Assembly: GCA_027296045.1 (NCBI GenBank)
Contig: JAPUJS010000481.1
Coordinates: forward strand, 1-15,785
Direction: 5' to 3'
DNA: 15,785 bases
From: a bacterium
GTDB lineage: Bacteria > Latescibacterota > UBA2968
The notes beneath the pieces are model-generated. The model did not search any database, had not been told where the DNA came from, and saw only the letters and a program-made list of their open reading frames with translations. Positions within the stretch are counted from its first letter, which is position 1. Each line of letters opens with the position of its first letter. The translations under genes were made by a program, and so were the position numbers. Below are positions 1-14,157 of the stretch, in pieces.

Positions 1-43
1 GTGTTTACAACAATTAAAAATAAAATAGGCACAATAGACCATC

Positions 44-58
44 TGGCATACGCCTTGC
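44..58 (+). promoter_or_regulatory. Candidate sigma-54 (RpoN) -24/-12 promoter for the pspA operon
   Basis: TGGCAT-acgcc-TTGCG (GG at -24, GC at -12, 5-nt spacer) fits the TGGCAC-N5-TTGCW consensus. It lies about 75 nt upstream of the pspA ATG. An AT-rich tract (11-40) that could be a bending site lies upstream. psp operons in Enterobacteria are sigma-54 dependent. Confidence 0.6.
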
Positions 59-134
59 GAACAAGAGATGGCGTAACCCGTGAATCACCTGACTTGTCAA
101 ATAGAAAAAAGAATCAAAGAGAGAGGAGAACATC

Positions 135-812
135 ATGGCACGTGGAATCTTTTCAAGAATGGCTGACATCATCAGGGCCAATGTCAATGAACTCGTCACC
201 CGGGCGGAAGACCCGGAAAAGATGATCCGACAAATGATTCTGGAAATGGAAGAGGCCGTTAACAAAGCCACCGCCTCGGTCGGAACCGCCGTGGCCAACG
301 AAAAACGTCTGGAACGGCAGCATCTGGAAAAACAAGACCAAATCGAAGCCTGGCAAAGCAAAGCCGAGCTGGCCGTTGAAGCCGGCGAAGACGACCTTGC
401 CCGACGCGCACTGGAACGCAAATCTGCAATTCAGGCTGCTGTCCAGGACCTGGAAGCCGCCCTGGATGAAAGCAAAAAGACGTCGTCCCAGCTCAAACAG
501 CAGCTCACCCAGCTCAAGGGCAAACTCGACGAAGCCCGCACACGCCAGGTCGCCCTCGTTGCACGCCGTCGGGCTGCCGAAGCACGCAAGCAAATCGCCA
601 AGAGTATAACGGGCGTGGGCGACGATGCCTTTTCCAGTTTTGACCGCTTCCGTCAGCGCATTGAAGCCGAAGAGGCCGAAGCCGAAGCCCATCAGGAAAT
701 CGCCGGTGCCGAACCTTCCCTCGACGACGCCTTTGCCAAACTCGAGCGCAAAAGCTCCGTGGAAGACGAACTCAAAGCCCTGAAAGACAAGATGGGAAAG
801 AAAAATGCGTGA
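135..812 (+). CDS. pspA: Phage shock protein A (PspA/IM30 family, ESCRT-III-like membrane remodelling protein)
   Basis: The N-terminus MARGIFSRMADIIRANVNELVTRAEDPEKMIRQMILEMEEAV closely matches the canonical PspA start [40 protein letters not shown]. The protein is 225 aa, helical, coiled-coil rich and charged. An RBS GAGGAG lies 8 nt upstream. Confidence 0.9.
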   Translation: MARGIFSRMADIIRANVNELVTRAEDPEKMIRQMILEMEEAVNKATASVGTAVANEKRLERQHLEKQDQIEAWQSKAELAVEAGEDDLARRALERKSAIQAAVQDLEAALDESKKTSSQLKQQLTQLKGKLDEARTRQVALVARRRAAEARKQIAKSITGVGDDAFSSFDRFRQRIEAEEAEAEAHQEIAGAEPSLDDAFAKLERKSSVEDELKALKDKMGKKNA

Positions 813-1512
813 TCTAGAAAAACTCGCCGACAAGATCGTCTTCGAAGTTGACAGGGCGGTTCGAGAGGTTCAAGATAAAATAGACCGTACGGTCAAACGA
901 GCAGAACAGAAAGTCAGGAAAGCGGAGCGCAGAACACAGCGGGTGTGGGAGTCGCAACCCGACTGGAGTGAATCCCGGACAGTTCGTGACTTCCAGACCG
1001 CTGCCACCAAAATTAAGAAATTCCCCACCCGCATCTCTGACCTGGCCACCGATGGGAGCTGCGCCATGCGATATCTATTTTCCTACTGTCTGAAAGGTTG
1101 GGCTTTCTGCCAGGGATTCGGCGGTCTCATGCTCGTCGCAATCACACTGGCAACCTCTGAACATCCCTGGCGCCAAGAAGAAATCAGTATTGGCCTGGTA
1201 CTCCTTGCCACCTCACAGGTTCTCTGGTGGATCGGTCAGCGCGTGAACAAATCCGCCGACCAGAAAGCCTACGCCCGCGATCAGCATCGCATCTTACGCC
1301 TTGCCCGCGAAAAAGGCGGCAACCTCACCGTCATCGAAGCCGCTACCGACGGACGGATGACCACCGAAAAAGCCGAAGAAATCCTGAGAGAACTGGCTGT
1401 ACAAGGCCACACCGAAGTCCGTGTCACCGACTCGGGCGTGATGGTCTACCACTTCCCAGAAATTTCCCGCTGGGATGAAAAACAGTGGGCCCGACCGGTT
1501 GACGAACTGTAA
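805..1512 (+). CDS. Membrane protein with N-terminal coiled-coil region, two predicted TM helices and a C-terminal winged-helix-like domain. Possible PspA partner or anchor.
   Basis: The start ATGCGTGA overlaps the pspA stop by 8 nt, which suggests translational coupling. Hydrophobic stretches are GFGGLMLVAITLATS and ISIGLVLLATSQVLWWIG. The C-terminus LTVIEAATDGRMTTEKAEEILRELAVQGHTEVRVTDSGVMVYHF has a wH-like pattern. No confident family assignment. Confidence 0.6.
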   Translation: MRDLEKLADKIVFEVDRAVREVQDKIDRTVKRAEQKVRKAERRTQRVWESQPDWSESRTVRDFQTAATKIKKFPTRISDLATDGSCAMRYLFSYCLKGWAFCQGFGGLMLVAITLATSEHPWRQEEISIGLVLLATSQVLWWIGQRVNKSADQKAYARDQHRILRLAREKGGNLTVIEAATDGRMTTEKAEEILRELAVQGHTEVRVTDSGVMVYHFPEISRWDEKQWARPVDEL

Positions 1513-1523
1513 GGGAGAATCCC

Positions 1524-1727
1524 ATGGACATGGACCTGATTTCGATTGGCTTGATGGTCGCCCTGATCATCCTGGCCTCAGCCGTTCACAAATACGTCGA
1601 CCGGCGCACCAAAGGCTCCATCCCCTCCGAAGCGGAAGAACGATTGATGGACCGGATGAATGAACTCGAACGCAGACTCACCGACATTCAAGATGTGATG
1701 CTCACCATTGACGATAAGCTCAATTGA
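1524..1727 (+). CDS. PspB-like small membrane protein, paralog 1 (N-terminal TM, C-terminal conserved helix motif)
   Basis: 67 aa with TM ISIGLMVALIILASAV. The C-terminus SEAEERLMDRMNELERRLTDIQDVMLTIDDKLN resembles the E. coli PspB tail SEQQRLAQLADEAKRMRERIQALESILDAE. RBS AAGGGAG. Confidence 0.7.
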   Translation: MDMDLISIGLMVALIILASAVHKYVDRRTKGSIPSEAEERLMDRMNELERRLTDIQDVMLTIDDKLN

Positions 1728-1744
1728 AGCTAAGGGAGGACACC

Positions 1745-1954
1745 ATGCTTGGCATCACCATGATGATCGTCATCATCATGCTCGCTTCAGCCGCCTGCAA
1801 ATACGTGGACCGGAAAACCCGCCATTTCGGCCCCTCCGAAGCGGAAAAACGACTGATGGACCGAATGGATGAACTCGAACAAAGGCTCACCGATATTCAA
1901 GACATCATGATCGCTATAGATGACAAGATGAGCCGGCCCGAAATGAAAATGTAA
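1745..1954 (+). CDS. PspB-like small membrane protein, paralog 2
   Basis: Start at ATG 1745 (RBS GGGAGGA 6 nt upstream; the track ORF begins at TTG 1724). TM MMIVIIMLASAA. C-terminus SEAEKRLMDRMDELEQRLTDIQDIMIAIDDKM. About 70% identical to paralog 1. Confidence 0.7.
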   Translation: MLGITMMIVIIMLASAACKYVDRKTRHFGPSEAEKRLMDRMDELEQRLTDIQDIMIAIDDKMSRPEMKM

Positions 1955-1979
1955 AAGCGTCTAAAGGAGGGAACCAAGC

Positions 1980-2225
1980 ATGTCACATGAAATTATACGC
2001 ACCGTCTTGGCCGGCATCGTCACGATCATCCTGTCCTCCGGACTTTGTTATTATATCGTCGAGCGTGCAAAATCAAGACCCTGGAAATCCGGCAAAGCCC
2101 CCGACGTGGAAAAACTCGAACAACGCCTCAAATCCTTGGAACAGCGCCTCACTGATATCCAGGACATTGTTCTCTCCATTGACGATCAACTAAAACGCTC
2201 GTCCGGCATTCCCCTTGAGAAATAA
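1980..2225 (+). CDS. PspB-like small membrane protein, paralog 3
   Basis: 81 aa with TM VLAGIVTIILSSGLCYYIV. C-terminus VEKLEQRLKSLEQRLTDIQDIVLSIDDQLKR. RBS AAAGGAGGG. Confidence 0.7.
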   Translation: MSHEIIRTVLAGIVTIILSSGLCYYIVERAKSRPWKSGKAPDVEKLEQRLKSLEQRLTDIQDIVLSIDDQLKRSSGIPLEK

Positions 2226-2237
2226 AGGTCTGATCCC

Positions 2238-3083
2238 ATGAACAAATACCTTCTGTCCATCCTGGGAATCCTGCTCTCCATTTCGCACATCGAAGCCTAC
2301 GAAGGCCTCGACCTGTCGGCCCAAGATATTGCCCAGTTGTCAGCCGTTGGTGTCACTCCCGAATACGTCCAGCAAATTCAACAACTGGGCTACAAAGATA
2401 TCTCTGCCCATGATATTACCCAACTCTATGCCGTTGGTGTGAAACCAGACTACATACGACAAATACGCAAGCTGGGTTATAAAGATATTTCTATCCACGA
2501 CATTACCCAACTCCACGCCGTTGGAGTCAAACCAGACTATGTGAGACAAATCAAAGACCTGGGCTATAAAAACATTTCCATCCACGACATTACCCAACTC
2601 CACGCCGTTGGGGTCAAACCAAACTATGTGAGACAAATCCAAAATCTCGGTTACGACGATATCTCTATCCATGATATCACACAATTTTATGTAACCGGAG
2701 TAACGCCCGACTATATCAAAAAAATGAAGGGCTCAAAAACAAAAATACATATTCCCGAAATCAAAGTGGACGTGCCCAATATCCAGGTTCATATCCCTGA
2801 AATCAAAGTGAATGTCCCACATATTCAGGTTCATGTCTCTGGAGTACAACATACGCGGTCGAACCCATCACGATGGAAAAATGCAGCAAAAATTGCTGGC
2901 TTGAGTTTTCTGGTTCTCGGCATCGGCTTTGCAGTCTATAAACTGAAAGATCCATATCCTGCACCACCCGAAAAACCGGATATAGAATCCCGAATTACCG
3001 AGTTTGAACAACGTGTCACAGACCTTCAGGATATCTTGATCTCCATTGATGACCGATTAAATCGACAATTGAAACATAACTAA
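2238..3083 (+). CDS. Repeat-rich membrane protein: signal peptide, 5x 29-aa tandem repeats, 2x approximately 16-aa repeats, a single TM, and a PspB-like C-terminal motif (paralog 4)
   Basis: The N-terminus MNKYLLSILGILLSISHIEA looks like a signal peptide. The 29-aa repeat DISIHDITQLHAVGVKPDYVRQIKDLGYK occurs five times, and HIPEIKV(D/N)VP(N/H)IQVH occurs twice. TM IAGLSFLVLGIGFAVY. C-terminus RITEFEQRVTDLQDILISIDDRLNRQ. Nucleotide-level tandem repeats span 2390-2690. Confidence 0.75.
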   Translation: MNKYLLSILGILLSISHIEAYEGLDLSAQDIAQLSAVGVTPEYVQQIQQLGYKDISAHDITQLYAVGVKPDYIRQIRKLGYKDISIHDITQLHAVGVKPDYVRQIKDLGYKNISIHDITQLHAVGVKPNYVRQIQNLGYDDISIHDITQFYVTGVTPDYIKKMKGSKTKIHIPEIKVDVPNIQVHIPEIKVNVPHIQVHVSGVQHTRSNPSRWKNAAKIAGLSFLVLGIGFAVYKLKDPYPAPPEKPDIESRITEFEQRVTDLQDILISIDDRLNRQLKHN

Positions 3084-3106
3084 TTTGATCTTTGGAGGGA
3101 CATCCC

Positions 3107-3436
3107 ATGAAATTTCTGTTCCAGCTTGCACTCTGTATCTGTCTGATCATCCTCACGGCAGGAACCATTGGATTTGTTATAGAAGATGGGGACTTTTTTT
3201 CGGGTGGCATCATGCTGATTGTGGTCTGGAGCATTATGTTCGCAATGCTCAAAAGAGCCCTTATTTTTGGTCAATCGGATCAAACCGATTCTGTCAAACA
3301 GGAATGGGCGGACCGCATCACCACCCTTGAAAAACGCCTCACCGACATCCAGGACGTCGTCATCGCGATCGACGATAAGTTGACACGTCAGGAATTCAGA
3401 TCCGATACGACTGTCCGTTCAAAAGAAGAAGCCTGA
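3107..3436 (+). CDS. PspB-like membrane protein, paralog 5 (two TM helices plus the conserved C-terminal motif)
   Basis: Start ATG 3107 with RBS GGAGGGA 6 nt upstream (the track begins at TTG 3092). TMs LALCICLIILTAGTIGFVI and IMLIVVWSIMFAML. C-terminus ADRITTLEKRLTDIQDVVIAIDDKLTRQ. Confidence 0.7.
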   Translation: MKFLFQLALCICLIILTAGTIGFVIEDGDFFSGGIMLIVVWSIMFAMLKRALIFGQSDQTDSVKQEWADRITTLEKRLTDIQDVVIAIDDKLTRQEFRSDTTVRSKEEA

Positions 3437-3498: not shown

Positions 3499-3669
3499 AT
3501 GCTTATCAAAATTCTCGGCATTGTCTTCATGATCGTCGGAGGTGGCATGGCCCTGGGAATCCTGTTCCCCCTTATTGGCTCCATTTTCGGACTCTTGTGG
3601 CTGGCCCTCAAACTGGCTATCGCCCTCGTCTTCGTCTACGTCGGTCACCGGCTCTTTTCTCAAGACTAA
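3499..3669 (+). CDS. Small (56 aa) two-TM membrane protein, PspG-like. Not in the supplied ORF track, probably because it is under the apparent 61-aa cutoff.
   Basis: ATG 3499 is preceded by AGAAAGGA. The product MLIKILGIVFMIVGGGMALGILFPLIGSIFGLLWLALKLAIALVFVYVGHRLFSQD is entirely hydrophobic with a GGG turn. Its length and pattern loosely resemble E. coli PspG (LLFVIGFFVMLMVTG...LPWLLLAIAVVWVI). It lies inside the psp-like cluster. Confidence 0.5.
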   Translation: MLIKILGIVFMIVGGGMALGILFPLIGSIFGLLWLALKLAIALVFVYVGHRLFSQD

Positions 3670-3758
3670 TTTCGACCCATACCGGTATGGTTGTGTATCT
3701 CACAACCACGTGCAAAGGTGAATCGCGAACACCTTTGCCACACAAATAAGGATGTACC

Positions 3759-4340
3759 ATGTCTCGTTCCAACGACCAAGCCCTCATTCGCAAAGCGCTC
3801 AAAGGCGATCATCAAGCCTTCGAAACGCTTTATAAAGCACACTACCCCCAGATCTATGGGGTCATTGCCCAGCGAGCAAATGATCGCGATCTGATCGATG
3901 ACCTGGTGCAAAACACCTTCATGCGGGCGTTCCGATCGTTGCACACCTTTAAAGGCAACGCCGCTTTCTCAACCTGGCTCACCCAGATCGCCCTCAATGT
4001 GTACCGATCCCATCTTCGGTCCAAACAGGCCCGACAAAACTGGCTGATCGAAACCGAAGACCCCGAGCTTGTCCCGGGCATCATTCGAAACGTTTCTGCC
4101 TTTGACGATCCGGAACAATCCATGCAGAACAAAGAACGCACCGCCCTCATCCGAAAAGGCATCCAGTCTTTGCCCGAACGATATCGAGAAGCCATGTGGT
4201 TGCGCTATGTCAAAGACTGGTCTTACGAAGAAATTACCCATGCCCTTCAGGTGCCTATTGGCACCGTCAAAACCTGGCTTTGCAGAGCCAGGCGTCAACT
4301 GGCCGGAGAATTTCGCAAGATGGGACTCCAACCCGTTTAA
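3759..4340 (+). CDS. ECF-family RNA polymerase sigma-70 factor (sigma-24/RpoE-like)
   Basis: 193 aa. Region 2 is DLVQNTFMRAFRSLHTFKGNAAFSTWLTQIALNVYRSHLR. Region 4 is LPERYREAMWLRYVKDWSYEEITHALQVPIGTVKTWLCRARRQL. Typical ECF architecture. Confidence 0.9.
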   Translation: MSRSNDQALIRKALKGDHQAFETLYKAHYPQIYGVIAQRANDRDLIDDLVQNTFMRAFRSLHTFKGNAAFSTWLTQIALNVYRSHLRSKQARQNWLIETEDPELVPGIIRNVSAFDDPEQSMQNKERTALIRKGIQSLPERYREAMWLRYVKDWSYEEITHALQVPIGTVKTWLCRARRQLAGEFRKMGLQPV

Positions 4341-4395: not shown

Positions 4396-5001
4396 ATGGA
4401 AGCCTGGTGGGTCGGACTTGCACCCCTGAACCAGATGCTGTATTCTGTCGCCATCTTTTTCAGCATTTTGTTCCTCTGGCAGTTCCTGAGTGCTTTAATT
4501 GGACTGGGCGGCAGTTCGGACTTCGATGTCGCCGAAACCGGTGCCAGTGAACTGGGCCCCGAAGTAGATGACGGATTTCACGAAAGTGGTATTGCCACCT
4601 TCAAATTGCTCTCCGTCCGATCCGTCATCGCCTTTGGGATGCTCTTCGGCTGGGCAAGTGCCCTCTACCTTGAATCGGGCCTGGACCTCTCAGCCGCTGG
4701 ACTTCGGGGCATCTTCTGGGGTACAGCTGGAATGGCGCTGGTTGCCTATTTTTTCTACAAAGTCCAGCGGCTCACCGAAACCGGTAACCTCAAACTGGAA
4801 ACCTGTGTCGGCACCGATGGCGAAGTTTATATCGACATTCCCCAAAACGGAGCCGGTCAAATCCGAGTAATCGAAAGCGGGGTTGTCAACTATGTATCTG
4901 CCCGAAGCAAAGGGGGGAACGCCATCCCGAACAAAACCTCTGTTCGCGTTCTGAAAACCCTCGATATGACCACAGTGGAAGTCGAACCCACCCATTCCTA
5001 A
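4396..5001 (+). CDS. NfeD-like membrane protein (short NfeD/YuaF family; N-terminal TM helices plus C-terminal OB-fold)
   Basis: Start ATG 4396 with RBS AAGGAGG. The TM-rich N-terminus carries the C-terminus GTDGEVYIDIPQNGAGQIRVIESGVVNYVSARSKGGNAIPNKTSVRVLKTLDMTTVEVEP, typical of the NfeD OB domain. It sits immediately upstream of a flotillin gene, as in yuaF-floT operons. Confidence 0.8.
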   Translation: MEAWWVGLAPLNQMLYSVAIFFSILFLWQFLSALIGLGGSSDFDVAETGASELGPEVDDGFHESGIATFKLLSVRSVIAFGMLFGWASALYLESGLDLSAAGLRGIFWGTAGMALVAYFFYKVQRLTETGNLKLETCVGTDGEVYIDIPQNGAGQIRVIESGVVNYVSARSKGGNAIPNKTSVRVLKTLDMTTVEVEPTHS

Positions 5002-5021
5002 ATCCATCTTCGCCCAGCCTT

Positions 5022-5061
5022 CAGCCGTCTGCTCTCCTGGCCTGGCAAGAGCAGACGGCTG
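5022..5061 (+). other. Perfect 14-bp stem-loop between nfeD-like and flotillin genes (intercistronic hairpin, not a canonical terminator)
   Basis: CAGCCGTCTGCTCT - 12-nt loop - AGAGCAGACGGCTG. Followed by GAGCGCTGAGCGCC and a 4-T run; no real U-tract. Confidence 0.5.
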
Positions 5062-5105
5062 AGCGCTGAGCGCCATTTTCTATCCCAATCGGAGGGGAGG
5101 GTCTT

Positions 5106-6755
5106 ATGCCCATCGAGATGATTCTCATCATCGGACTCGCTGCGGTTGTTGTTCTGCTTTTCATTACTTTTATTTCTCGCTACAAACGCTGTCCGTCCAA
5201 TAGAATCCTGGTCATTTATGGCAAAACCGGTACCGGCACAGCGGCCAAATGCATACACGGAGGTGCCGCCTTTGTAATTCCCCTCCTGCAGGACTATGCA
5301 TATCTCGACCTGGAACCCTTTGTGGTTCCCATCGACCTGGACAACGCATTGTCCCAGGAGAACATCCGTGTCTCGGTGCCCACCACCGTTACAGCGGCCA
5401 TCTCCAATCAGCCCGGCATTATGCAAAATGCGGCCGTTCGCCTTTTAGGACTCAGCCGCCAGCAGGTGCAAAGCCAGGCCCAGGACATCATCCTCGGTCA
5501 GATGCGGGCGGTGATTGCCACGATGCAAATTGAGGAAATCAACCGGGACCGCCAGGGCTTTATGAGCAAGGTCAACGAAGCGGTGTCGACCGAGATGGAA
5601 AAAATCGGCCTTACCGTTATCAACGTAAACATCAAAGATATCGATGACGAAAGCGGCTATATCACAGCCATTGGCCGGAAAGCCGCCGCCGAGGCCGTCA
5701 ACCAGGCCGCCATCGATGTGGCCGAACAGGAAAAAATGGGCAAGGTGGGTGTGGCCGAACGGGATCGCGACCGCCGAAAAGCGGTTGCTGCCGCCGAAGC
5801 CAGTGCCGATATTGGCGAATCGGAAGCCGAACGGGAAAGACGTCGACAGGTCGCCGCACTGAACTCCGAAGCAGAAATCGGCGAATCGGAAGCCGAACGG
5901 GAAAAACGCCGACAGGTTGCCGCATTAAACGCCGAAGCAGAAATCGGCGAGGCAGAAGCCGGACGGGACAAACGGCAGCGCGTGGCATCTCTCGAAGCCG
6001 AGGCTGTCCAGACAGAATCCGAAGCGGACGCCAAAAAAGCCGGGTATCTGGCCAACCAGCGTGTGGCCGAGGAAAGTGCCCGACGCAAAAGCGAAGAAGC
6101 CTCCAAAGCGGCTGACGGTGCCATCCGGGTTGCCCAGGAAAATGCGCAAAAAGAAGCCGAAGAAGCCAGAGCGCTTCGCGAAGAAGCCCGTCTGAAAGCC
6201 GAAGTCGTGGTCCAGGCCGAAGCAGAAAAACAGCGTCAGATTGTGGAAGCCGAAGGCGAAAAAGAACAACGACGCCTGGTTGCCGAAGGCGAAGCCGCCG
6301 CCATTCTTGCCCAGAAAGAAGCCGAAGCCAAGGGAACCCAGGCGATCCTGGATGCCAAGGCCGAAGGTTATCGAAAAATGGTCGAAGCCTGCGACCACAA
6401 CGATCAGGCTGCTGCGGCCTTTCTCATTATTGAACGCCTCACCGAAGTCGCCCACATTCAGGCCGAAGCCATCCGCAACCTGCCCATCGAGAAGATCATG
6501 GTCTGGGACAGTGGCAACGGGGAAAGTGGTATGTCCAACCTGGGCCAGCGGTTGATGGGGGCGATTCCCCCAATGCACGATCTGGCTCGCCTGGCCGGAC
6601 TGGAATTGCCCGAATTCCTGGGTAGACTAACCCAGAAAGAAGACGGGGCCACTGGAAATAACCGGACCGGGGAAAAAACAGAAACGCAGGTCGAAAACCA
6701 GGATGCAGCCCAGGATCAGACAGGCGAGACGACAAAAACAGGCGGGGAAGCGTAA
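5106..6755 (+). CDS. Flotillin (SPFH/Band-7 family, FloT/YuaG/YqiK-like)
   Basis: 549 aa. N-terminal TM IIGLAAVVVLLFITFI, then an SPFH domain (RILVIYGKTGTGTAAKCIHGGAAFVIPLLQDYAYLDLEPF...). Long E/A-rich coiled-coil repeats (EAEIGESEAERERRRQVAALN x3) and a conserved C-terminus IIERLTEVAHIQAEAIRNL. RBS GGAGGGGAGGG. Confidence 0.9.
   Translation: MPIEMILIIGLAAVVVLLFITFISRYKRCPSNRILVIYGKTGTGTAAKCIHGGAAFVIPLLQDYAYLDLEPFVVPIDLDNALSQENIRVSVPTTVTAAISNQPGIMQNAAVRLLGLSRQQVQSQAQDIILGQMRAVIATMQIEEINRDRQGFMSKVNEAVSTEMEKIGLTVINVNIKDIDDESGYITAIGRKAAAEAVNQAAIDVAEQEKMGKVGVAERDRDRRKAVAAAEASADIGESEAERERRRQVAALNSEAEIGESEAEREKRRQVAALNAEAEIGEAEAGRDKRQRVASLEAEAVQTESEADAKKAGYLANQRVAEESARRKSEEASKAADGAIRVAQENAQKEAEEARALREEARLKAEVVVQAEAEKQRQIVEAEGEKEQRRLVAEGEAAAILAQKEAEAKGTQAILDAKAEGYRKMVEACDHNDQAAAAFLIIERLTEVAHIQAEAIRNLPIEKIMVWDSGNGESGMSNLGQRLMGAIPPMHDLARLAGLELPEFLGRLTQKEDGATGNNRTGEKTETQVENQDAAQDQTGETTKTGGEA
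5811..6008 (+). repeat. Three tandem approximately 66-nt in-frame repeats inside flotillin (22-aa EA-rich coiled-coil units)
   Basis: ATCGGCGAATCGGAAGCCGAACGGGAAA(G/A)ACG(T/C)CGACAGGT(C/T)GCCGCA... repeated, with the third copy more diverged. Confidence 0.8.
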
Positions 6756-6824
6756 GGCGTGAAACAGATATTGCGCCAATAACTTCTCAACCGCACACCC
6801 ATTTTTAAACAAAAAATCACAAAA

Positions 6825-6916
6825 GGCCACGAAGTCCAACCGCTCCCTTCCGGGAGCAAAGGTGGGTTTCGTGGCCCTTCGTGAAAGGAAAGGGTCGGAG
6901 TCGAGGCCCTTCGTGA
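6825..6916 (+). promoter_or_regulatory. Structured intergenic region upstream of the histidine kinase gene: a hairpin plus reiterated TTCGTG motifs
   Basis: GGCCACGAAG...(nested CTCCCttccGGGAG)...TTTCGTGGCC forms a hairpin with an approximately 10-bp stem. The direct repeats GGCCCTTCGTGA appear at about 6873-6884 and 6905-6916. Confidence 0.4.
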
Positions 6917-6946: not shown

Positions 6947-8581
6947 ATGTCCAACCTCAAAACCGAAACCCACCAGCCCCCTCGGCCTTCCGACCAGATC
7001 GAAATTGCTCGGGAACTCCCGGAATCGTCGAACCCCGAAGCAAGTCGGTTTTCCAGACAGGGGGATGTCGCCCTCAAAAACGGGGACCTGTCCGAAGCAG
7101 TCAAAGCCTATCAAAAAGCCGTCAAGGCCGATCGCAACGACCTTCGCTCTCACCACAACCTGGGCGTGGTTTCCTACCAGCAGGAAAACTGGGAAATGGC
7201 GCAATCCTACCTGGACCGCTGCGTTCAACTTGCCCCCGAAGACTCCGATTTGCTCTTCAAACAGGGCCTGTGTGCCTTGAAACAAAATCGACGTGAAGAG
7301 GCATCCAGAGCCTTTTCCAGTGTCCTGAAATTGGACCCCGACCATCTGCGTTCCCGGTTTCAAGTGGCCCTCCTGCACGCCCGTGGAACGGCCACCGTTT
7401 CCAGAGATCGGCAAAAAGCGATTGAAAACCTGGAATACATCCTGGAGGCCTGCGGCCGGGGCGTGTCCTTCCAGAACCTGGACCGCGTCTGTTTTCTTCT
7501 GGGCAGTTTTCTAGACGACCACCCCGACAATCGCGACCAGGCCATTGCCGTCTATCGACGGGGGCTCGATGTAGATCCCTTTTTCGCCCCGGGTCACAAC
7601 AACCTGGGCGTACTTTTGATGCAAGACGGACAAACACTTCCTGCCCTGGGGGCTTTCAAAATCGCTGTCCAGCTCGAACCCGACTACACCCTGCCCTATG
7701 GCAATCTCGCTCGCCTCTTGTTTGACCATATGAGTCCAACCCAGATGGAGCAAGAATTTGGGTCCATCGTAGACGAGTTTGGTATTCAAGCACCGTCTGT
7801 CCTCGTCCAGCTTTCCCTGGAACTCATCGACCTGGGACGCGGGCAGGTCTACGAAAGCCTTTATACCCACGGCCACCGCATCAAAAACTTGATGGGCATG
7901 TCTGGCGCCCGAATGCGGCGTCTGATTCGCGATTTCCCCCAGGATGCGCACGGCCTGGATGAACTTCAAAGCATTGCCCACGACCAGGAACAGATCTTCA
8001 ACCAGTGGGTCGCCTATCTCCGGTCGATGAAACAGGGGACAATGAACCTCACCCTGGTTGACGTGTCCCAACTCGTTCATAAAACCACCGGCGGCCTGTC
8101 TGCCCAGGCCGGATCAAAAACCCTGCACTTTGCATCCGAAACCCGGGTTCCCCAGGTCAAAGCAGATGCCGGTATGCTTCGGGAAGCCGTGACCAACCTC
8201 ACCCTCAATGCCCTGCAAGCCGTAGAGGAAGAAAGCGGCAAAGTCACCGTTCAAGTGGGACACGATCCATTGCGCGCCTCCGTTTATATCGAAGTCGAAG
8301 ACAACGGACCTGGCATCCCTGATGCCCAACAAGCCCGGATCTTCGACCCCGGTTATACCACCCGTCAAAACGGCAACGGCTACGGCTTGAGCATCTGTGC
8401 CCGAATCGCCTCCGCACACCGGGGCCACCTGCGCCTGATCAGCCAGCCGGGAGCCGGAGCAGTCTTTCGCATCGACCTCCCGATCGACTTTGAAGTGTCT
8501 GCCCAGGAAGACACCATTGGTCTCCAGCGTTCTGTTGCAGACGTTTCCACCGATCCGGTGACCGAAGAATTCGTTCTATAA
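6947..8581 (+). CDS. Soluble sensor histidine kinase with an N-terminal TPR-repeat domain and a C-terminal HATPase_c
   Basis: TPR-like repeats (AVKAYQKAVKADRNDLRSHHNLGVV; WEMAQSYLDRCVQLAPEDSDLLFKQGLC). N-box LREAVTNLTLNALQA. G1 VEDNGPGIP. G2 GNGYGLSICARI. No TM segment. Candidate H-site SIAHDQEQIFNQ, which is non-canonical. Confidence 0.8.
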   Translation: MSNLKTETHQPPRPSDQIEIARELPESSNPEASRFSRQGDVALKNGDLSEAVKAYQKAVKADRNDLRSHHNLGVVSYQQENWEMAQSYLDRCVQLAPEDSDLLFKQGLCALKQNRREEASRAFSSVLKLDPDHLRSRFQVALLHARGTATVSRDRQKAIENLEYILEACGRGVSFQNLDRVCFLLGSFLDDHPDNRDQAIAVYRRGLDVDPFFAPGHNNLGVLLMQDGQTLPALGAFKIAVQLEPDYTLPYGNLARLLFDHMSPTQMEQEFGSIVDEFGIQAPSVLVQLSLELIDLGRGQVYESLYTHGHRIKNLMGMSGARMRRLIRDFPQDAHGLDELQSIAHDQEQIFNQWVAYLRSMKQGTMNLTLVDVSQLVHKTTGGLSAQAGSKTLHFASETRVPQVKADAGMLREAVTNLTLNALQAVEEESGKVTVQVGHDPLRASVYIEVEDNGPGIPDAQQARIFDPGYTTRQNGNGYGLSICARIASAHRGHLRLISQPGAGAVFRIDLPIDFEVSAQEDTIGLQRSVADVSTDPVTEEFVL

Positions 8582-8611
8582 TCCTTGCAGGCGTTTCTAC
8601 CGATCCGTTCG
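8536..8611 (+). repeat. Imperfect direct duplication of the histidine-kinase 3' end
   Basis: TTGCAGACGTTTCCACCGATCCGGT...GTTCTATAA (in the gene) versus TTGCAGGCGTTTCTACCGATCCGTTCGTTTTATAA (just downstream). Confidence 0.7.
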
Positions 8612-8641
8612 TTTTATAACCCTATTTGGAAAATTTCATCA

Positions 8642-8693
8642 ATCGATTTATCTTGTATCGATCGACTTGTCTTGTAAATCGACTTATCTTGTT
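8642..8693 (+). promoter_or_regulatory. Three tandem 16-bp direct repeats ending exactly at the response-regulator start codon
   Basis: ATCGATTTATCTTGTA (8642-8657), ATCGACTTGTCTTGTA (8661-8676), ATCGACTTATCTTGTT (8678-8693). The ATG is at 8694. Confidence 0.75.
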
Positions 8694-10103
8694 ATGAATA
8701 AACAAATTCTTGTTGCAGACGACCAGATTGAAGTTCTCGATATGCTCATCCGAAGCCTTCAGGCCGATGAGCGAGACGTCCAGGCCTTTTCCACCGGAAG
8801 GGAAGCCCTCGTCTATCTCCAGCAACACCCATCGGATGTGGACATGGCCATTCTGGATCTGGATTTTGGCCCCGACGAGCCCGATGGCCTGGAGATCTTG
8901 CAGCAAATGCGGGACGAAATCCCCGACCTGCCCGTCATCATCCTCACCGGACAGGGCACCATTGATACGGCCGTGGCTGCCCTGAGACTGGGTGCGGTGG
9001 ACTTTATCGAAAAAGACTTCTATATTGAAGATAAAATCGAGATCAGTCTGGAAAAGCTGGACCGGATGCTCACGGCGCTCCGGGAAAACGCCCGGCTCAA
9101 GGTTGAGGTCCAAAATTTGGACCGGGAAAACCAGCTTTACCGATCGGAATTCGGCAAGCGCTACCGCGTAATCGGCGACAGCCCCCAGTGGCAACAGGTC
9201 CTGCGCCAGGCCGAACAAATTGCGTCCATTCCCCGACCTGCCCTCATCCTGGGCGAGCCCGGCACGGGCAAAGAACTGGTTGCCGCTGCCATTCACTATG
9301 GAGGGGTGCGCAAAGATCGCCCTTTTGTAAAAGTCAACTGCGCCGCCCTGTCCGACCAACTCCTGGCAAGTGAACTCTTCGGGCATGAGAAAGGCGCTTA
9401 CACGGGTGCTACAGAAGCCCGCATCGGCAAATTTGAAGCCGCCAATGGCGGTACGATTTTCCTCGATGAAATAGGAAATACCACCCCGGGATTTCAGCAA
9501 AATATCCTTCGGGCCATCGAATATCAGGAAGTTCAGCGCGTTGGATCGGCAACCCCGGTCTCTGTAGACACCCGGGTGATTGCCGCTACCAACGCCGACC
9601 TGGAAAAAGAAATGGCCGAAGGCCGTTTTCGCCAGGACCTCTACGACCGCCTGCGTTTCGAAGTCATTCGAATGCCCCCCCTCCGAGAACGCCGGGAAGA
9701 CATCGCAGACCTGGCCAATTTCTTTGTTGCACAAATCACCGAGGAAGTCCCCGGACTCCAGGTTCGACCGTTCTCGGATGAGGCCCTGAAAAATCTTCAA
9801 ACCTACCACTGGCCCGGCAATGTACGGGAACTCAAGTTTGCCGCCGAACGAGCCGCCTGTGTGGCCACCGGTTCTCAAATCGAGCCCGGTGATTTGCCGC
9901 CCGAAATCGCCGGCGATGTTCCGATTGTCTCCTCCGGTGAAGGATATGAAGCCCAGATCAGAGCCTTCGAACTGGGCCTGCTCAGACGGTCGTTGAACGA
10001 AACCGTCTGGAACCAGCGGGAGGCGGCCAAAAAACTCAAGCTCAGCTACGACCAGTTCCGGCATCTGTATCGAAAATACAAACTCAATCGTGAGAAACCC
10101 TAA
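8694..10103 (+). CDS. Sigma-54-dependent response regulator (NtrC family: receiver + AAA+ sigma-54 interaction domain + Fis-type HTH)
   Basis: Receiver MNKQILVADDQ...DMAILDLDFG...LTGQGTIDTAVAALRLGAVDFIEKD. Walker A GEPGTGKE. The GAFTGA-type loop ELFGHEKGAYTGA. ESELFG and RERREDI motifs. C-terminal HTH WNQREAAKKLKLSYDQFRHLYRKYKL. Start chosen at 8694; an in-frame ATG at 8667 is also possible. Confidence 0.9.
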   Translation: MNKQILVADDQIEVLDMLIRSLQADERDVQAFSTGREALVYLQQHPSDVDMAILDLDFGPDEPDGLEILQQMRDEIPDLPVIILTGQGTIDTAVAALRLGAVDFIEKDFYIEDKIEISLEKLDRMLTALRENARLKVEVQNLDRENQLYRSEFGKRYRVIGDSPQWQQVLRQAEQIASIPRPALILGEPGTGKELVAAAIHYGGVRKDRPFVKVNCAALSDQLLASELFGHEKGAYTGATEARIGKFEAANGGTIFLDEIGNTTPGFQQNILRAIEYQEVQRVGSATPVSVDTRVIAATNADLEKEMAEGRFRQDLYDRLRFEVIRMPPLRERREDIADLANFFVAQITEEVPGLQVRPFSDEALKNLQTYHWPGNVRELKFAAERAACVATGSQIEPGDLPPEIAGDVPIVSSGEGYEAQIRAFELGLLRRSLNETVWNQREAAKKLKLSYDQFRHLYRKYKLNREKP

Positions 10104-10114
10104 ATAAAAGTATT

Positions 10115-10223
10115 CAGGAGACAGAAGACAGGAGACAGGAGCCGCTCCACTCATCCGCCCAGGAGAAACAAAGGCGGGGTTGGGTGGGGCTCCTGTATTC
10201 TGTCTCCTGTCTCCTGTCTCCTG
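10115..10223 (+). repeat. Long imperfect palindrome built from (CAGGAGACA)n on the left arm and (TGTCTCCTG)n on the right arm. Possible terminator or translational control element.
   Basis: Left arm CAGGAGACAGAAGACAGGAGACAGGAGCC and right arm GGCTCCTGTATTCTGTCTCCTGTCTCCTGTCTCCTG. The approximately 45-nt loop contains a nested CCGCCC/GGCGGG stem. It ends 7 nt before ATG 10231 and is followed by ATTTCTT. Confidence 0.7.
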
Positions 10224-10230
10224 ATTTCTT

Positions 10231-11817
10231 ATGCTACACCCCAAAACCCCCAAACTCAGCCTCCGGACCTGCTTTTTCGACAGCTTCACCTTGTGGGTGA
10301 ACCACATCCCTGTCCTGTTTATCGCCACCTTTCTCACCTTCTTCCTCAGCTCGATTACCTTCACCTTGTTTATGGGCAGTCTCTACGCCGGCTTGCTGAT
10401 GATGCTTTTACAAGGCCTGCGCGGGGAGAAGCCCATTTTACGAGACCTCTTTGGCCAGTTTCGTCGCTTCATCCGCTTTTTCTCCATTACCCTGTTTATC
10501 TTGCTCTTCTTCATTTTCGGGCTTGCCCTCCTGGCCGGACCGCTTTTTTTTCTTTCCAATACCGAAATTCCATCCGAGATCCTCCAGGAAATCGAAGCCG
10601 GGATGCAAGAGGAAGGCATTCACCTTCGCCCCAGAGAAATTCTGCAATTTGTCAAAAACAGCGATTTTCTTGTCCCCGCCATCCTGATCACATTCTGCTT
10701 TATCGTGCTTCCTGGCATTTTTTTTATTGTCAAATGCTTCTACATGTATCTCCTGGCCGCCGACCGGGGCGTTCACCTGGATGAAGCTTATGTCGAAAGC
10801 CGAAAAGCCGTTGAGAGATACGGGTTCCGAAAGCATTTTTTTCTTATTTTTGCCGCCCTGGCCATCTTCTTCGGAAGCGATCTGATGGTTCGCAAAATGA
10901 CCGATGTCCCCATCGCCGAATTTTTTCCGCTCTTTGTCTTCCCCTTTGCCGTGGGCCTGTTTGTTTCGGCCTACCACCAGACCTTAGAAGCTGAAGCCCG
11001 ACAATCTCAGTTTTATCGCGAAGAGTTTGAAGTCATGCGCGACGAACTCCAGACCGCCCATGACATGCAAATGGAGCTGCTTCCCGATGAAAGCCCCGAA
11101 CTCTCCGGGTTCTCCCTGGATGGAACCTGCATCCCGGCCAATAACGTGGGCGGCGATTATTTCGCCTATCGCTGGCTCGATACAGAAAAAACGCGGCTGG
11201 CCATCCTGGTTGCCGATGTCTCCGGAAAGGCGATGGAAGCCGCCGTCACGGCCCTTCGCTTCAACGAAATGCTCCGATATGAATCTCGCGCCCGGATCGA
11301 TCCGGGCGAAATCCTGGATGGATTAAACGATTCGCTGGAAGGACAGATCGACACCGATACCTTTATCACCTGTGTGATTGGCGTCCTGGATATCACAGAC
11401 AATATCATTCACATTGCCAACGCCGGTCACTGTTTCCCCTATCACTACCGGGACCGAGATCAAAAAGCCGTCCCGGTTAATCTCACGGGCTGCCCGCTCG
11501 GCCTGCCCGCCATCATTCGGCCGGAAGAGCCGTATGAAACCCGTCAGGTCAAACTCGAACCGGGTGATATGATCGCCTTCTACTCCGACGGGGTGGTCGA
11601 AGCCCAGAATGCCCGGCACGAACTGTATGAAGATGAGCGCTTTGAAAAACTCCTGGAAACCATTGCGCCGGGAGCAAAACCAGACCGGGTGGTTCGAGCC
11701 GTTGTCCGGGAAGTCAATCAATATATCGGAGATGCCCCACGAACCGACGACGTCACCATTGTGGTTTTAAAACGGGACGGCCAGAGCGGCCCGGCAAACG
11801 ATTCGGAAACACCCTGA
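10231..11817 (+). CDS. Polytopic membrane PP2C-family (SpoIIE/RsbU-type) serine phosphatase
   Basis: An N-terminal hydrophobic domain of about 250 aa with 5 or more TM segments, then a coiled-coil linker. PPM domain motifs: GGDYFAYRWL, LAILVADVSGKAMEAA, ANAGHCFPY, GDMIAFYSDGVVEAQN, DDVTIVVLK. No SD upstream (see the palindrome), so the exact start is uncertain. Confidence 0.8.
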   Translation: MLHPKTPKLSLRTCFFDSFTLWVNHIPVLFIATFLTFFLSSITFTLFMGSLYAGLLMMLLQGLRGEKPILRDLFGQFRRFIRFFSITLFILLFFIFGLALLAGPLFFLSNTEIPSEILQEIEAGMQEEGIHLRPREILQFVKNSDFLVPAILITFCFIVLPGIFFIVKCFYMYLLAADRGVHLDEAYVESRKAVERYGFRKHFFLIFAALAIFFGSDLMVRKMTDVPIAEFFPLFVFPFAVGLFVSAYHQTLEAEARQSQFYREEFEVMRDELQTAHDMQMELLPDESPELSGFSLDGTCIPANNVGGDYFAYRWLDTEKTRLAILVADVSGKAMEAAVTALRFNEMLRYESRARIDPGEILDGLNDSLEGQIDTDTFITCVIGVLDITDNIIHIANAGHCFPYHYRDRDQKAVPVNLTGCPLGLPAIIRPEEPYETRQVKLEPGDMIAFYSDGVVEAQNARHELYEDERFEKLLETIAPGAKPDRVVRAVVREVNQYIGDAPRTDDVTIVVLKRDGQSGPANDSETP

Positions 11818-14060: not shown

Positions 14061-14096
14061 CCCACTCTCCTGGGCAAATCTCCAGCGCCTCGTATT

Positions 14097-14157
14097 ATAT
14101 ATAGAAATTTTCTATATATAATATAGTAATTATTGATTTGATTAATATATAGAAATC
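14097..14157. promoter_or_regulatory. LysR-type operator candidates in the divergent lysR/ino1 intergenic region
   Basis: A perfect 23-bp palindrome ATATATAGAAA-T-TTTCTATATAT (14097-14119) contains a T-N11-A core. A direct half-site copy TATATAGAAAT lies at 14147-14157. A TATAAT hexamer is at 14117-14122. Confidence 0.6.

Follow-up and report, generated by a model that had tools for sequence, protein, structure and literature searches.

The stretch analysed here, hereafter the window, is the 15,785-nt contig JAPUJS010000481.1 of the bacterial assembly GCA_027296045.1 (Latescibacterota; UBA2968), which opens with a gene array headed by pspA. Just ahead of that gene, positions 44–59 are read as a sigma-54 (RpoN) promoter serving a psp-like operon of Latescibacterota, one that would be activated by a regulator of receiver (REC), AAA+ and helix-turn-helix (HTH) domains together with a TPR-domain histidine kinase; we place the probability of this reading at about 0.8. 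The promoter region comprises the following features:

1–43, forward strand: A+T-rich tract directly 5' of the -24 element, 73% A+T
44–59, forward strand: sigma-54 promoter core, called from its sequence, chance expectation, top score and the GG/A/TTGC pattern invariant in 16 loci
68–72, forward strand: predicted transcription start (about position 70), placed from the -12 position and implying a 5' untranslated region of about 65 nt
124–128, forward strand: ribosome-binding site AGGAG, 6 nt before the pspA ATG, seen in the sequence, with GGAG conserved in the upstream alignment
135–812, forward strand: pspA, 225 aa, first gene (PF04012, PspA_IM30, E 1.4e-45; TIGR02977, E 1.5e-54)

On the forward strand, positions 44–59 are TGGCATACGCCTTGCG, which divides into TGGCAT-ACGCC-TTGCG and is flanked by ...CATC and AACA.... 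An earlier, sequence-only reading had described this site as TGGCAT-N5-TTGCG with the invariant GG/GC spacing of RpoN promoters, about 75 nt before pspA and downstream of an AT-rich tract, and each of these points has held: the -24 GG occupies 45–46 and the -12 GC 57–58, the end of the motif (59) and the pspA ATG (135) are separated by 76 nt, and the A+T content of positions 1–43 is 73%, compared with 46% for the whole window. The first G lies 12 nt from the G of the GC, the canonical -24/-12 spacing, and the two dinucleotides are 10 nt apart, as the sigma-54 consensus TGGCAC-N5-TTGCW demands. Compared with YTGGCACGrNNNTTGCW, the site keeps the whole of the invariant GG and TTGC and departs only at tolerated positions, where it has T in place of C (-21), A in place of G (-20) and G in place of W (-11). 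The pspA 5' leader has no notable structure (fold of 68–140, z = -0.23), and no known RNA was matched there in Rfam.

The same reading had called for a sigma-54 scoring scan, and a consensus-weighted scan of the window ranks 44–59 first, as the sole high scorer that is both intergenic and directed at a gene. The remaining high scorers were rejected as candidates, being located within open reading frames (ORFs), lacking the GC, or pointing at no gene; TGGCATGGCCCTGGGA at 3543, for example, lies within a 56-aa ORF and is without the GC. The runner-up, CGGCATCGGCTTTGCA on the forward strand at 2918–2933, is found within the poorly conserved gene g6, 174 nt 5' of g7, and is probably a chance match. 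By chance, 0.07 exact matches to TGGCAY-N5-TTGC are expected per window over both strands, and 13 of 200 shuffles (6.5%) had one or more. With two mismatches allowed, 11 occurrences were found in the window and 13 expected, and because this looser pattern shows no enrichment, the motif by itself is suggestive, not proof.

Searches with PspA, in which metagenome-assembled genomes of Latescibacterota came out as the closest relatives, identified 11 Latescibacterota genome loci (L001–L010 and L015), with PspA 73–83% identical, and two metagenome loci (L016 and L017). These 13 Latescibacterota-type loci and the window give 14 sequences, and two distant lineages (L019 and L022), reached via activator homologues of 56–61% identity and including one cluster named 'Gemmatimonadetes bacterium' by NCBI, extend the comparison to 16 loci. 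Related genomes were examined as 20-kb pieces around the locus. In an alignment of the 140 nt 5' of pspA, little can still be matched between the sequences other than the ribosome-binding site and the GG, A and TTGC, whose spacing is fixed. When the 14 sequences are anchored on the motif, seven columns are invariant (GG, A and TTGC; 2 bits each), every one a sigma-54 contact position; the mean over the 89 columns of the flanks is 0.49 bit, and none of these is invariant. The motif is present in 13/13 Latescibacterota-type loci with a GG-to-ATG distance that varies from 73 to 108 nt, and its conservation is therefore no by-product of coding sequence. In the distant lineages, TGGCAC-ACCGC-TTGCA and TGGCAT-GGTCC-TTGCA lie 95 nt and 64 nt, respectively, before pspA, and across the loci the strand of the motif and its placement relative to pspA are constant. 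A footprint confined to GG/A/TTGC is what selection on a -24/-12 promoter would be expected to leave, and on this comparison chance is excluded. The promoter call is considered settled because conservation is restricted to the sigma-54 contact bases while the flanks have diverged.

Upstream activator repeats had also been suggested as a feature to look for, and palindromes do occur at enhancer distance in the orthologues. All 13 carry an inverted repeat, consensus TTGGTG-N5-CACCAA, centred 108–133 nt 5' of the predicted start. The L015 copy is perfect, and those of L017, L016, L008, L009 and L010 depart from the consensus at a single position. With up to two mismatches allowed, 8 of the 13 loci have the palindrome, and it is nearly unique per 20-kb locus. 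A second, weaker copy lies 21–22 bp (two helical turns) further 5' in most orthologues, and was undetected in L006–L010. The distant lineages have TGGY-N7-RCCA sites in the same layout: two in L022, 21 bp apart and centred at -132 and -111, and one in L019 at -123, with a one-mismatch copy 22 bp 5' found by inspection. Within the window, a search for TTGGTG-N5-CACCAA at two mismatches returned a single hit, inside g6. Between these palindromes and the core, the region from -60 to -3 of the GG has an A+T content of 61–84% in 14/14 orthologous regions, compared with 38–52% locus-wide, and the distant lineages are alike in this respect. The tract at 1–43 is likely a bendable or integration host factor (IHF)-type spacer between enhancer and promoter. 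Together, the tandem sites, A+T spacer and -24/-12 core are arranged as in the control region of E. coli pspA, a textbook enhancer architecture.

Two further genes of the array would supply the signalling:

6947–8581, forward strand: TPR-domain histidine kinase, presumed cognate sensor of the activator
8694–10103, forward strand: REC-AAA+(GAYTGA)-HTH enhancer-binding response regulator, 469 aa, presumed activator of the 44–59 promoter

The sequence-only reading had taken the product of 8694–10103 for an NtrC-type activator, phosphorylatable as a response regulator, and had compared the control it would exert with that of enterobacterial pspA-PspF; the domain analysis supports both points. Profile searches found Response_reg (E 2e-19), Sigma54_activat (E 1e-62) and the AAA lid; the C-terminal Fis-type HTH (PF02954, HTH_8) scores 20.4 bits against a cut-off of 22 (E 4.4e-4) and is called in several orthologues. 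An alignment of 12 orthologues shows no variation in the receiver residues D9, D10, D55, T85 and K107, in the Walker A and B motifs, in the arginine fingers or in the HTH recognition helix; the helix WNQR.AA..L.LSYDQFRH.YRK is conserved. This genome and L002–L005 have GAYTGA as the sigma-54 contact loop, and the remaining orthologues have GAFTGA; GAYTGA is the native motif of HrpS, an active enhancer-binding protein (EBP) (PMC3105312). Residues 8–237 of E. coli PspF and the AAA+ core are 47% identical in a gapless alignment. The top NCBIfam model is PspF at 341 bits, below its cut-off, followed by NtrC at 335 bits, and the best structural and sequence matches are ZraR and NtrC1. In E. coli, PspA docks on and inhibits PspF via a YLW patch formed by Y51, L52 and W56 (PMC3791423). 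Here, that patch is lacking, with Y202, G203 and K207 at the corresponding positions (comparison made with an E. coli PspF sequence whose coordinates agree with the PDB match), and orthologues have K, R or S at position 207. The protein is thus best described, from its predicted domains, as a PspF-like motor with NtrC-like control. The kinase has an HATPase_c domain (E 1.3e-23), an H-box, an N-terminal TPR array and no evident transmembrane (TM) segments, and its gene is directly 5' of that of the activator in every locus, distant lineages included.

In the circuit proposed here, for which we infer the use of sigma-54, the start site, the identity of the activator, the phosphorylation switch and the length of the transcript, RNA polymerase–sigma-54 would form a closed complex on the -24 GG and -12 GC. 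The adjacent soluble TPR kinase would phosphorylate D55 of the activator, which would then oligomerise on tandem TTGGTG-N5-CACCAA sites, 21–22 bp apart and at about -110 to -155, and reach the promoter by looping over the A+T-rich spacer. Only when the AAA+ activator had remodelled the closed complex would transcription start near position 70.

The activator is provisionally assigned to the promoter because promoter, enhancer, kinase and activator are co-inherited over lineages. Each locus has one EBP gene, always in the cluster and directly after the TPR histidine kinase, and the order from pspA to TPR kinase and REC-EBP is kept in 13/13 of the longer loci, including those without the extracytoplasmic function (ECF) sigma and flotillin genes. 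In the distant lineages the ECF sigma, NfeD and flotillin genes are missing; pspA, a homologue of its neighbour g2, the TPR kinase, the REC-EBP and between two and four members of the small zipper protein family are kept, their genes closely spaced and all on the same strand. Several observations weigh against the proposed circuit. The pairing that would have the activator at 8694–10103 serve the 44–59 promoter comes from co-inheritance alone. The contig begins 43 nt before the GG, and this genome's own enhancer falls outside it; the site would lie about 38–63 nt before window position 1, past the contig end. A search for further upstream DNA turned up no exact record of PspA, and the exact database match of the activator lies on this same contig. 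The palindromes are degenerate in L002–L005 and L007, with three to four mismatches. An RpoN box is absent from the window and from the fetched 20-kb loci of its relatives, and literature searches pairing Latescibacterota with sigma-54 or rpoN gave nothing relevant. The presence of rpoN is one that we infer because the EBP is conserved and intact, and because sigma-54 promoters and EBPs depend on each other (PMC4641369).

It is unlikely that a genuine sigma-54 promoter is activated here by an EBP encoded elsewhere, such as a receiver-less PspF, with the kinase and REC-EBP of the cluster controlling other targets. The psp activators known from E. coli and D. vulgaris do lack N-terminal domains, the window is without an enhancer, and the EBP search spanned 20 kb per genome. 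Within that span, however, no further EBP was found in the 10 kb on either side, and pspA, kinase and REC-EBP are co-inherited on one strand in every locus, at activator identities of 56–100%, despite differing accessory genes. The enhancer palindrome has been conserved, as has the HTH recognition helix, and the best, if sub-cut-off, NCBIfam match of the activator is to PspF itself.

Transcription of pspA mainly from an ECF-sigma or sigma-70 promoter, as with sigma-W in B. subtilis, would make the -24/-12 motif secondary or vestigial, and is very improbable. Such an arrangement could draw on the ECF sigma gene (3759–4340) and NfeD-like/flotillin pair held in the same array, and on the extra sigma-70 promoter that exists in Yersinia psp. 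Yet the alignment of 14 orthologous sequences contains no conserved sigma-70 or ECF-type element between the -12 and the ribosome-binding site, nor any other conserved block there or in the 44 nt upstream, and a sigma-70 promoter scan 5' of pspA in the window predicted nothing. The distant lineages without an ECF gene keep both the sigma-54 motif and the kinase and activator. That the 44–59 match is due to chance, or is the site of an unrelated factor, is scarcely credible and effectively refuted by the comparative sequence data, for although the two-mismatch pattern is no commoner than in shuffles and exact matches arise in some of them, the sigma-54 contact bases alone are conserved, with their spacing kept, in 16 loci that cannot be aligned elsewhere in the flanks, with strand and position relative to pspA constant and an enhancer and EBP accompanying the motif.

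The genes that this promoter could reach, and those beyond them, are as follows:

805–1512, forward strand: g2, 235 aa, with a coiled coil, two TM segments and a winged-helix-like C-terminus; overlaps pspA by 8 nt
1524–2225, forward strand: three tandem genes for small single-TM zipper proteins (family search; weak match to the PspC C-terminus)
2238–3083, forward strand: g6, 281 aa, with a signal-peptide-like N-terminus; tightly packed
3092–3436, forward strand: g7; tightly packed
3499–3669, forward strand: 56-aa membrane ORF, 62 nt after g7, abutting the ECF sigma gene in orthologues
3759–4340, forward strand: ECF sigma factor
4396–5001, forward strand: NfeD/YuaF-like membrane protein, with no Pfam match
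5106–6755, forward strand: FloT-like flotillin
10231–11817, forward strand: SpoIIE-type phosphatase, followed by ThiI
3' of ThiI: LysR (reverse strand), then inositol-1-phosphate synthase

All genes from pspA through ThiI are on the forward strand. The sequence-only reading had placed the whole array under the sigma-54 promoter, and for the proximal part the packing of the genes supports this. Gaps from pspA to g7 range from -8 to +25 nt, followed by the 62 nt before the 56-aa ORF, and 135–3436 looks like one operon, which probably extends to 3669. Reach to the ECF sigma, flotillin, kinase and activator genes is plausible only. Counting against a transcript of the whole array are hairpins at 3688–3738 (z = -2.9), long stems at 5011–5072 and 6817–6884, distal intergenic gaps of 89–191 nt in the window, and a very long inverted repeat after the activator gene, at 10108–10230; given these hairpins and gaps, the distal genes may have promoters of their own, and read-through past 3669 is given roughly even odds. 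In the orthologues, the ECF sigma gene follows the small membrane ORF after a gap of 12–60 nt, and the array is compact through the activator in L001, L003, L015, L019 and L022. In such compact loci, the promoter would transcribe the gene of its own activator, a case of positive autoregulation. The 3688–3738 element, between the 56-aa ORF and the ECF gene, consists of the hairpins GGTTGTG-N5-CACAACC and GCAAAGGTG-N9-CACCTTTGC, the first of which resembles the enhancer palindrome GTTGGTG-N5-CACCAAC; neither is found in the orthologues, across their shorter gap.

PspA itself matches TIGR02977 at 185 bits, under the equivalog cut-off of 243. The 8-nt overlap of g2 with pspA is kept in the orthologues where g2 is called (which excludes L015 and L016), and in the half with the two TM segments and winged-helix-like C-terminus, g2 and the product of the second gene in L019 are 43% identical (127 residues, E 4e-34). 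With no Pfam match, g2 looks, on this conservation, like an unnamed PspA partner. The small proteins of 1524–2225 are 67–81 aa long, with a single TM segment and the C-terminal motif RL.E(L/I)E(R/Q)RLTD(I/V)QD(V/I), and one to four copies follow pspA in each related locus, distant lineages included (L019, 7306–8412; L022, 8033–8614). The family is without any Pfam model: no match to Pfam PspB or PspC was found at E <= 5, BLASTP against E. coli PspB gave no alignment, and the match to the PspC C-terminus in NCBIfam is weak (E 9.7e-4; 19 bits against a cut-off of 104). The resemblance to PspB and the PspC C-terminus is one of architecture only, namely one TM segment and a zipper. The g6 repeat protein, found in only a few related loci, is encoded with three 87-nt tandem repeats (2321–2668, reported as a 174-nt unit, 71–74% identity) and two 42-nt repeats (2748–2831).

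The block of ECF sigma, NfeD and flotillin genes is present in most Latescibacterota loci, with L001 lacking the flotillin and the distant lineages lacking the block. No recognisable anti-sigma gene lies beside the ECF sigma factor. The set of ECF sigma, NfeD/YuaF-like protein and flotillin recalls the sigma-W-controlled yuaF-floT and pspA of B. subtilis. The flotillin gene of the window contains three 66-nt in-frame tandem repeats (5805–6002).

Further repeats were noted elsewhere in the window. Ahead of the activator gene, 8641–8692 contains three direct repeats of AATCGAYTTRTCTTGT, spaced by 19 and 17 nt, the last of which ends 2 nt before the activator start codon. Their core, CTTGTCTT, is the reverse complement of a AAGACAAG block conserved about 150–180 nt 5' of the -24 element in the orthologues; the repeats themselves are specific to this genome, the kinase–activator gap of the orthologues being only 3–27 nt. 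The gap between the activator and SpoIIE-type phosphatase genes (10108–10230) is occupied by a long imperfect inverted repeat of GGAGACA/TGTCTCC heptamers, with arms of up to 34 nt that are 85–95% complementary, possibly a terminator or a repetitive extragenic element. In the intergenic region between the divergent LysR and inositol-1-phosphate synthase genes, 14093–14123 forms a perfect 15-nt A+T palindrome, TATTATATATAGAAA-T-TTTCTATATATAATA, likely a LysR-type operator.

Sigma-54 control of pspA is a textbook case: the activator has no sensory domain, and its own target, PspA, regulates it in trans. The PspF-pspABCDE systems of E. coli and Yersinia share with the present locus a -24/-12 promoter right before pspA, two activator sites about 80–130 bp from the start with a bendable spacer (IHF-bound in E. 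coli; here the sites are those of the orthologues), the 47% identical AAA+ core, and small single-TM zipper proteins after pspA. In contrast to E. coli PspF, which has no regulatory domain, the activator here has a receiver domain and a cognate TPR kinase, and whereas E. coli pspF is divergent from pspA, the activator gene here is 7.9 kb downstream on the same strand. The small membrane proteins, unlike those of the classical regulon, do not match the Pfam PspB/PspC models, and the -12 element has the canonical GC where enterobacteria commonly have GT (PMC3041696). Three loci retrieved with the same PspA query from Alphaproteobacteria/Pseudomonadota (L011–L013; about 8600–10000) have the classical arrangement, with a receiver-less EBP divergent from pspA; the EBP match starts at query residue 159, and in L012 a GGYAY-N5-TTGC lies between the two genes.

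Control by sigma-54 and PspF is established in enterobacteria and predicted in further Proteobacteria (PMC3041696, PMC4641369). Outside the Gammaproteobacteria, D. vulgaris has a predicted sigma-54/EBP-controlled psp operon, comprising the PspF-like DVU2989 with DVU2988–2986 (PMC4641369); DVU2989, which lacks an N-terminal domain, is an EBP of the single-component kind, whereas the activator here is a two-component response regulator. With NtrB/NtrC, ZraS/ZraR and AtoS/AtoC, the system shares the REC-AAA+ architecture with a probable Fis-type HTH, the adjacent kinase and, in the orthologues, the tandem palindromic enhancers, but its target is the pspA membrane-stress operon, and its kinase is soluble with TPRs. 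The half-sites of NtrC are CACC..GGTG, opposite to the GGTG..CACC found here. A PspA homologue is under two-component control in B. subtilis LiaFSR-liaIH, and PspA, NfeD and flotillin genes are linked to an ECF sigma in its sigma-W system, but both use sigma-70-family promoters, and the regulators are of the REC-HTH type, in place of the sigma-54-type promoter and AAA+ EBP seen here. To our knowledge, Psp regulation outside the Proteobacteria has been described as sigma-70-type (Lia, ClgR, sigma-W). Associations of PspA with band-7 proteins and two-component systems have been catalogued (PMC11237479), the contexts in this recent PSP survey including PspF, NtrC-like proteins with ACT or PAS domains, REC-HTH two-component systems, and band-7/flotillin and YuaF proteins. 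Our literature searches found no description of a PspF-like EBP with a REC domain governing pspA together with a TPR kinase.

A wider generalisation is offered tentatively, and is more doubtful than not: that a phosphorelay-controlled Psp system is widespread in uncultured lineages (Latescibacterota, Gemmatimonadota-like), in which PspB/C-like zipper proteins, PspA or both would report membrane damage to the TPR kinase, and from there via a REC-EBP without the YLW patch to a sigma-54 promoter. In the compact loci, this would add positive feedback, and in Latescibacterota a sigma-54-to-ECF cascade with NfeD and flotillin.

The promoter is an ordinary member of its class, and as both ingredients of the circuit are well known, their combination brings no conceptual surprise; what is new appears to be that the classic PspF-pspA circuit of E. 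coli occurs here in a two-component form. The clean, conserved cis-architecture of tandem palindromes, A+T spacer and -24/-12 core would make the circuit testable in a heterologous host, and provides a working sigma-54 motif and one enhancer motif with which to annotate Latescibacterota genomes. If the wider generalisation is true, the anti-activation logic of PspA and PspF would have been replaced in these bacteria by a two-component switch. The locus itself would amount to a third regulatory solution for pspA in little-known phyla, one that keeps the promoter class and the PspF-like motor, and takes its input from a receiver domain fed by a TPR kinase.

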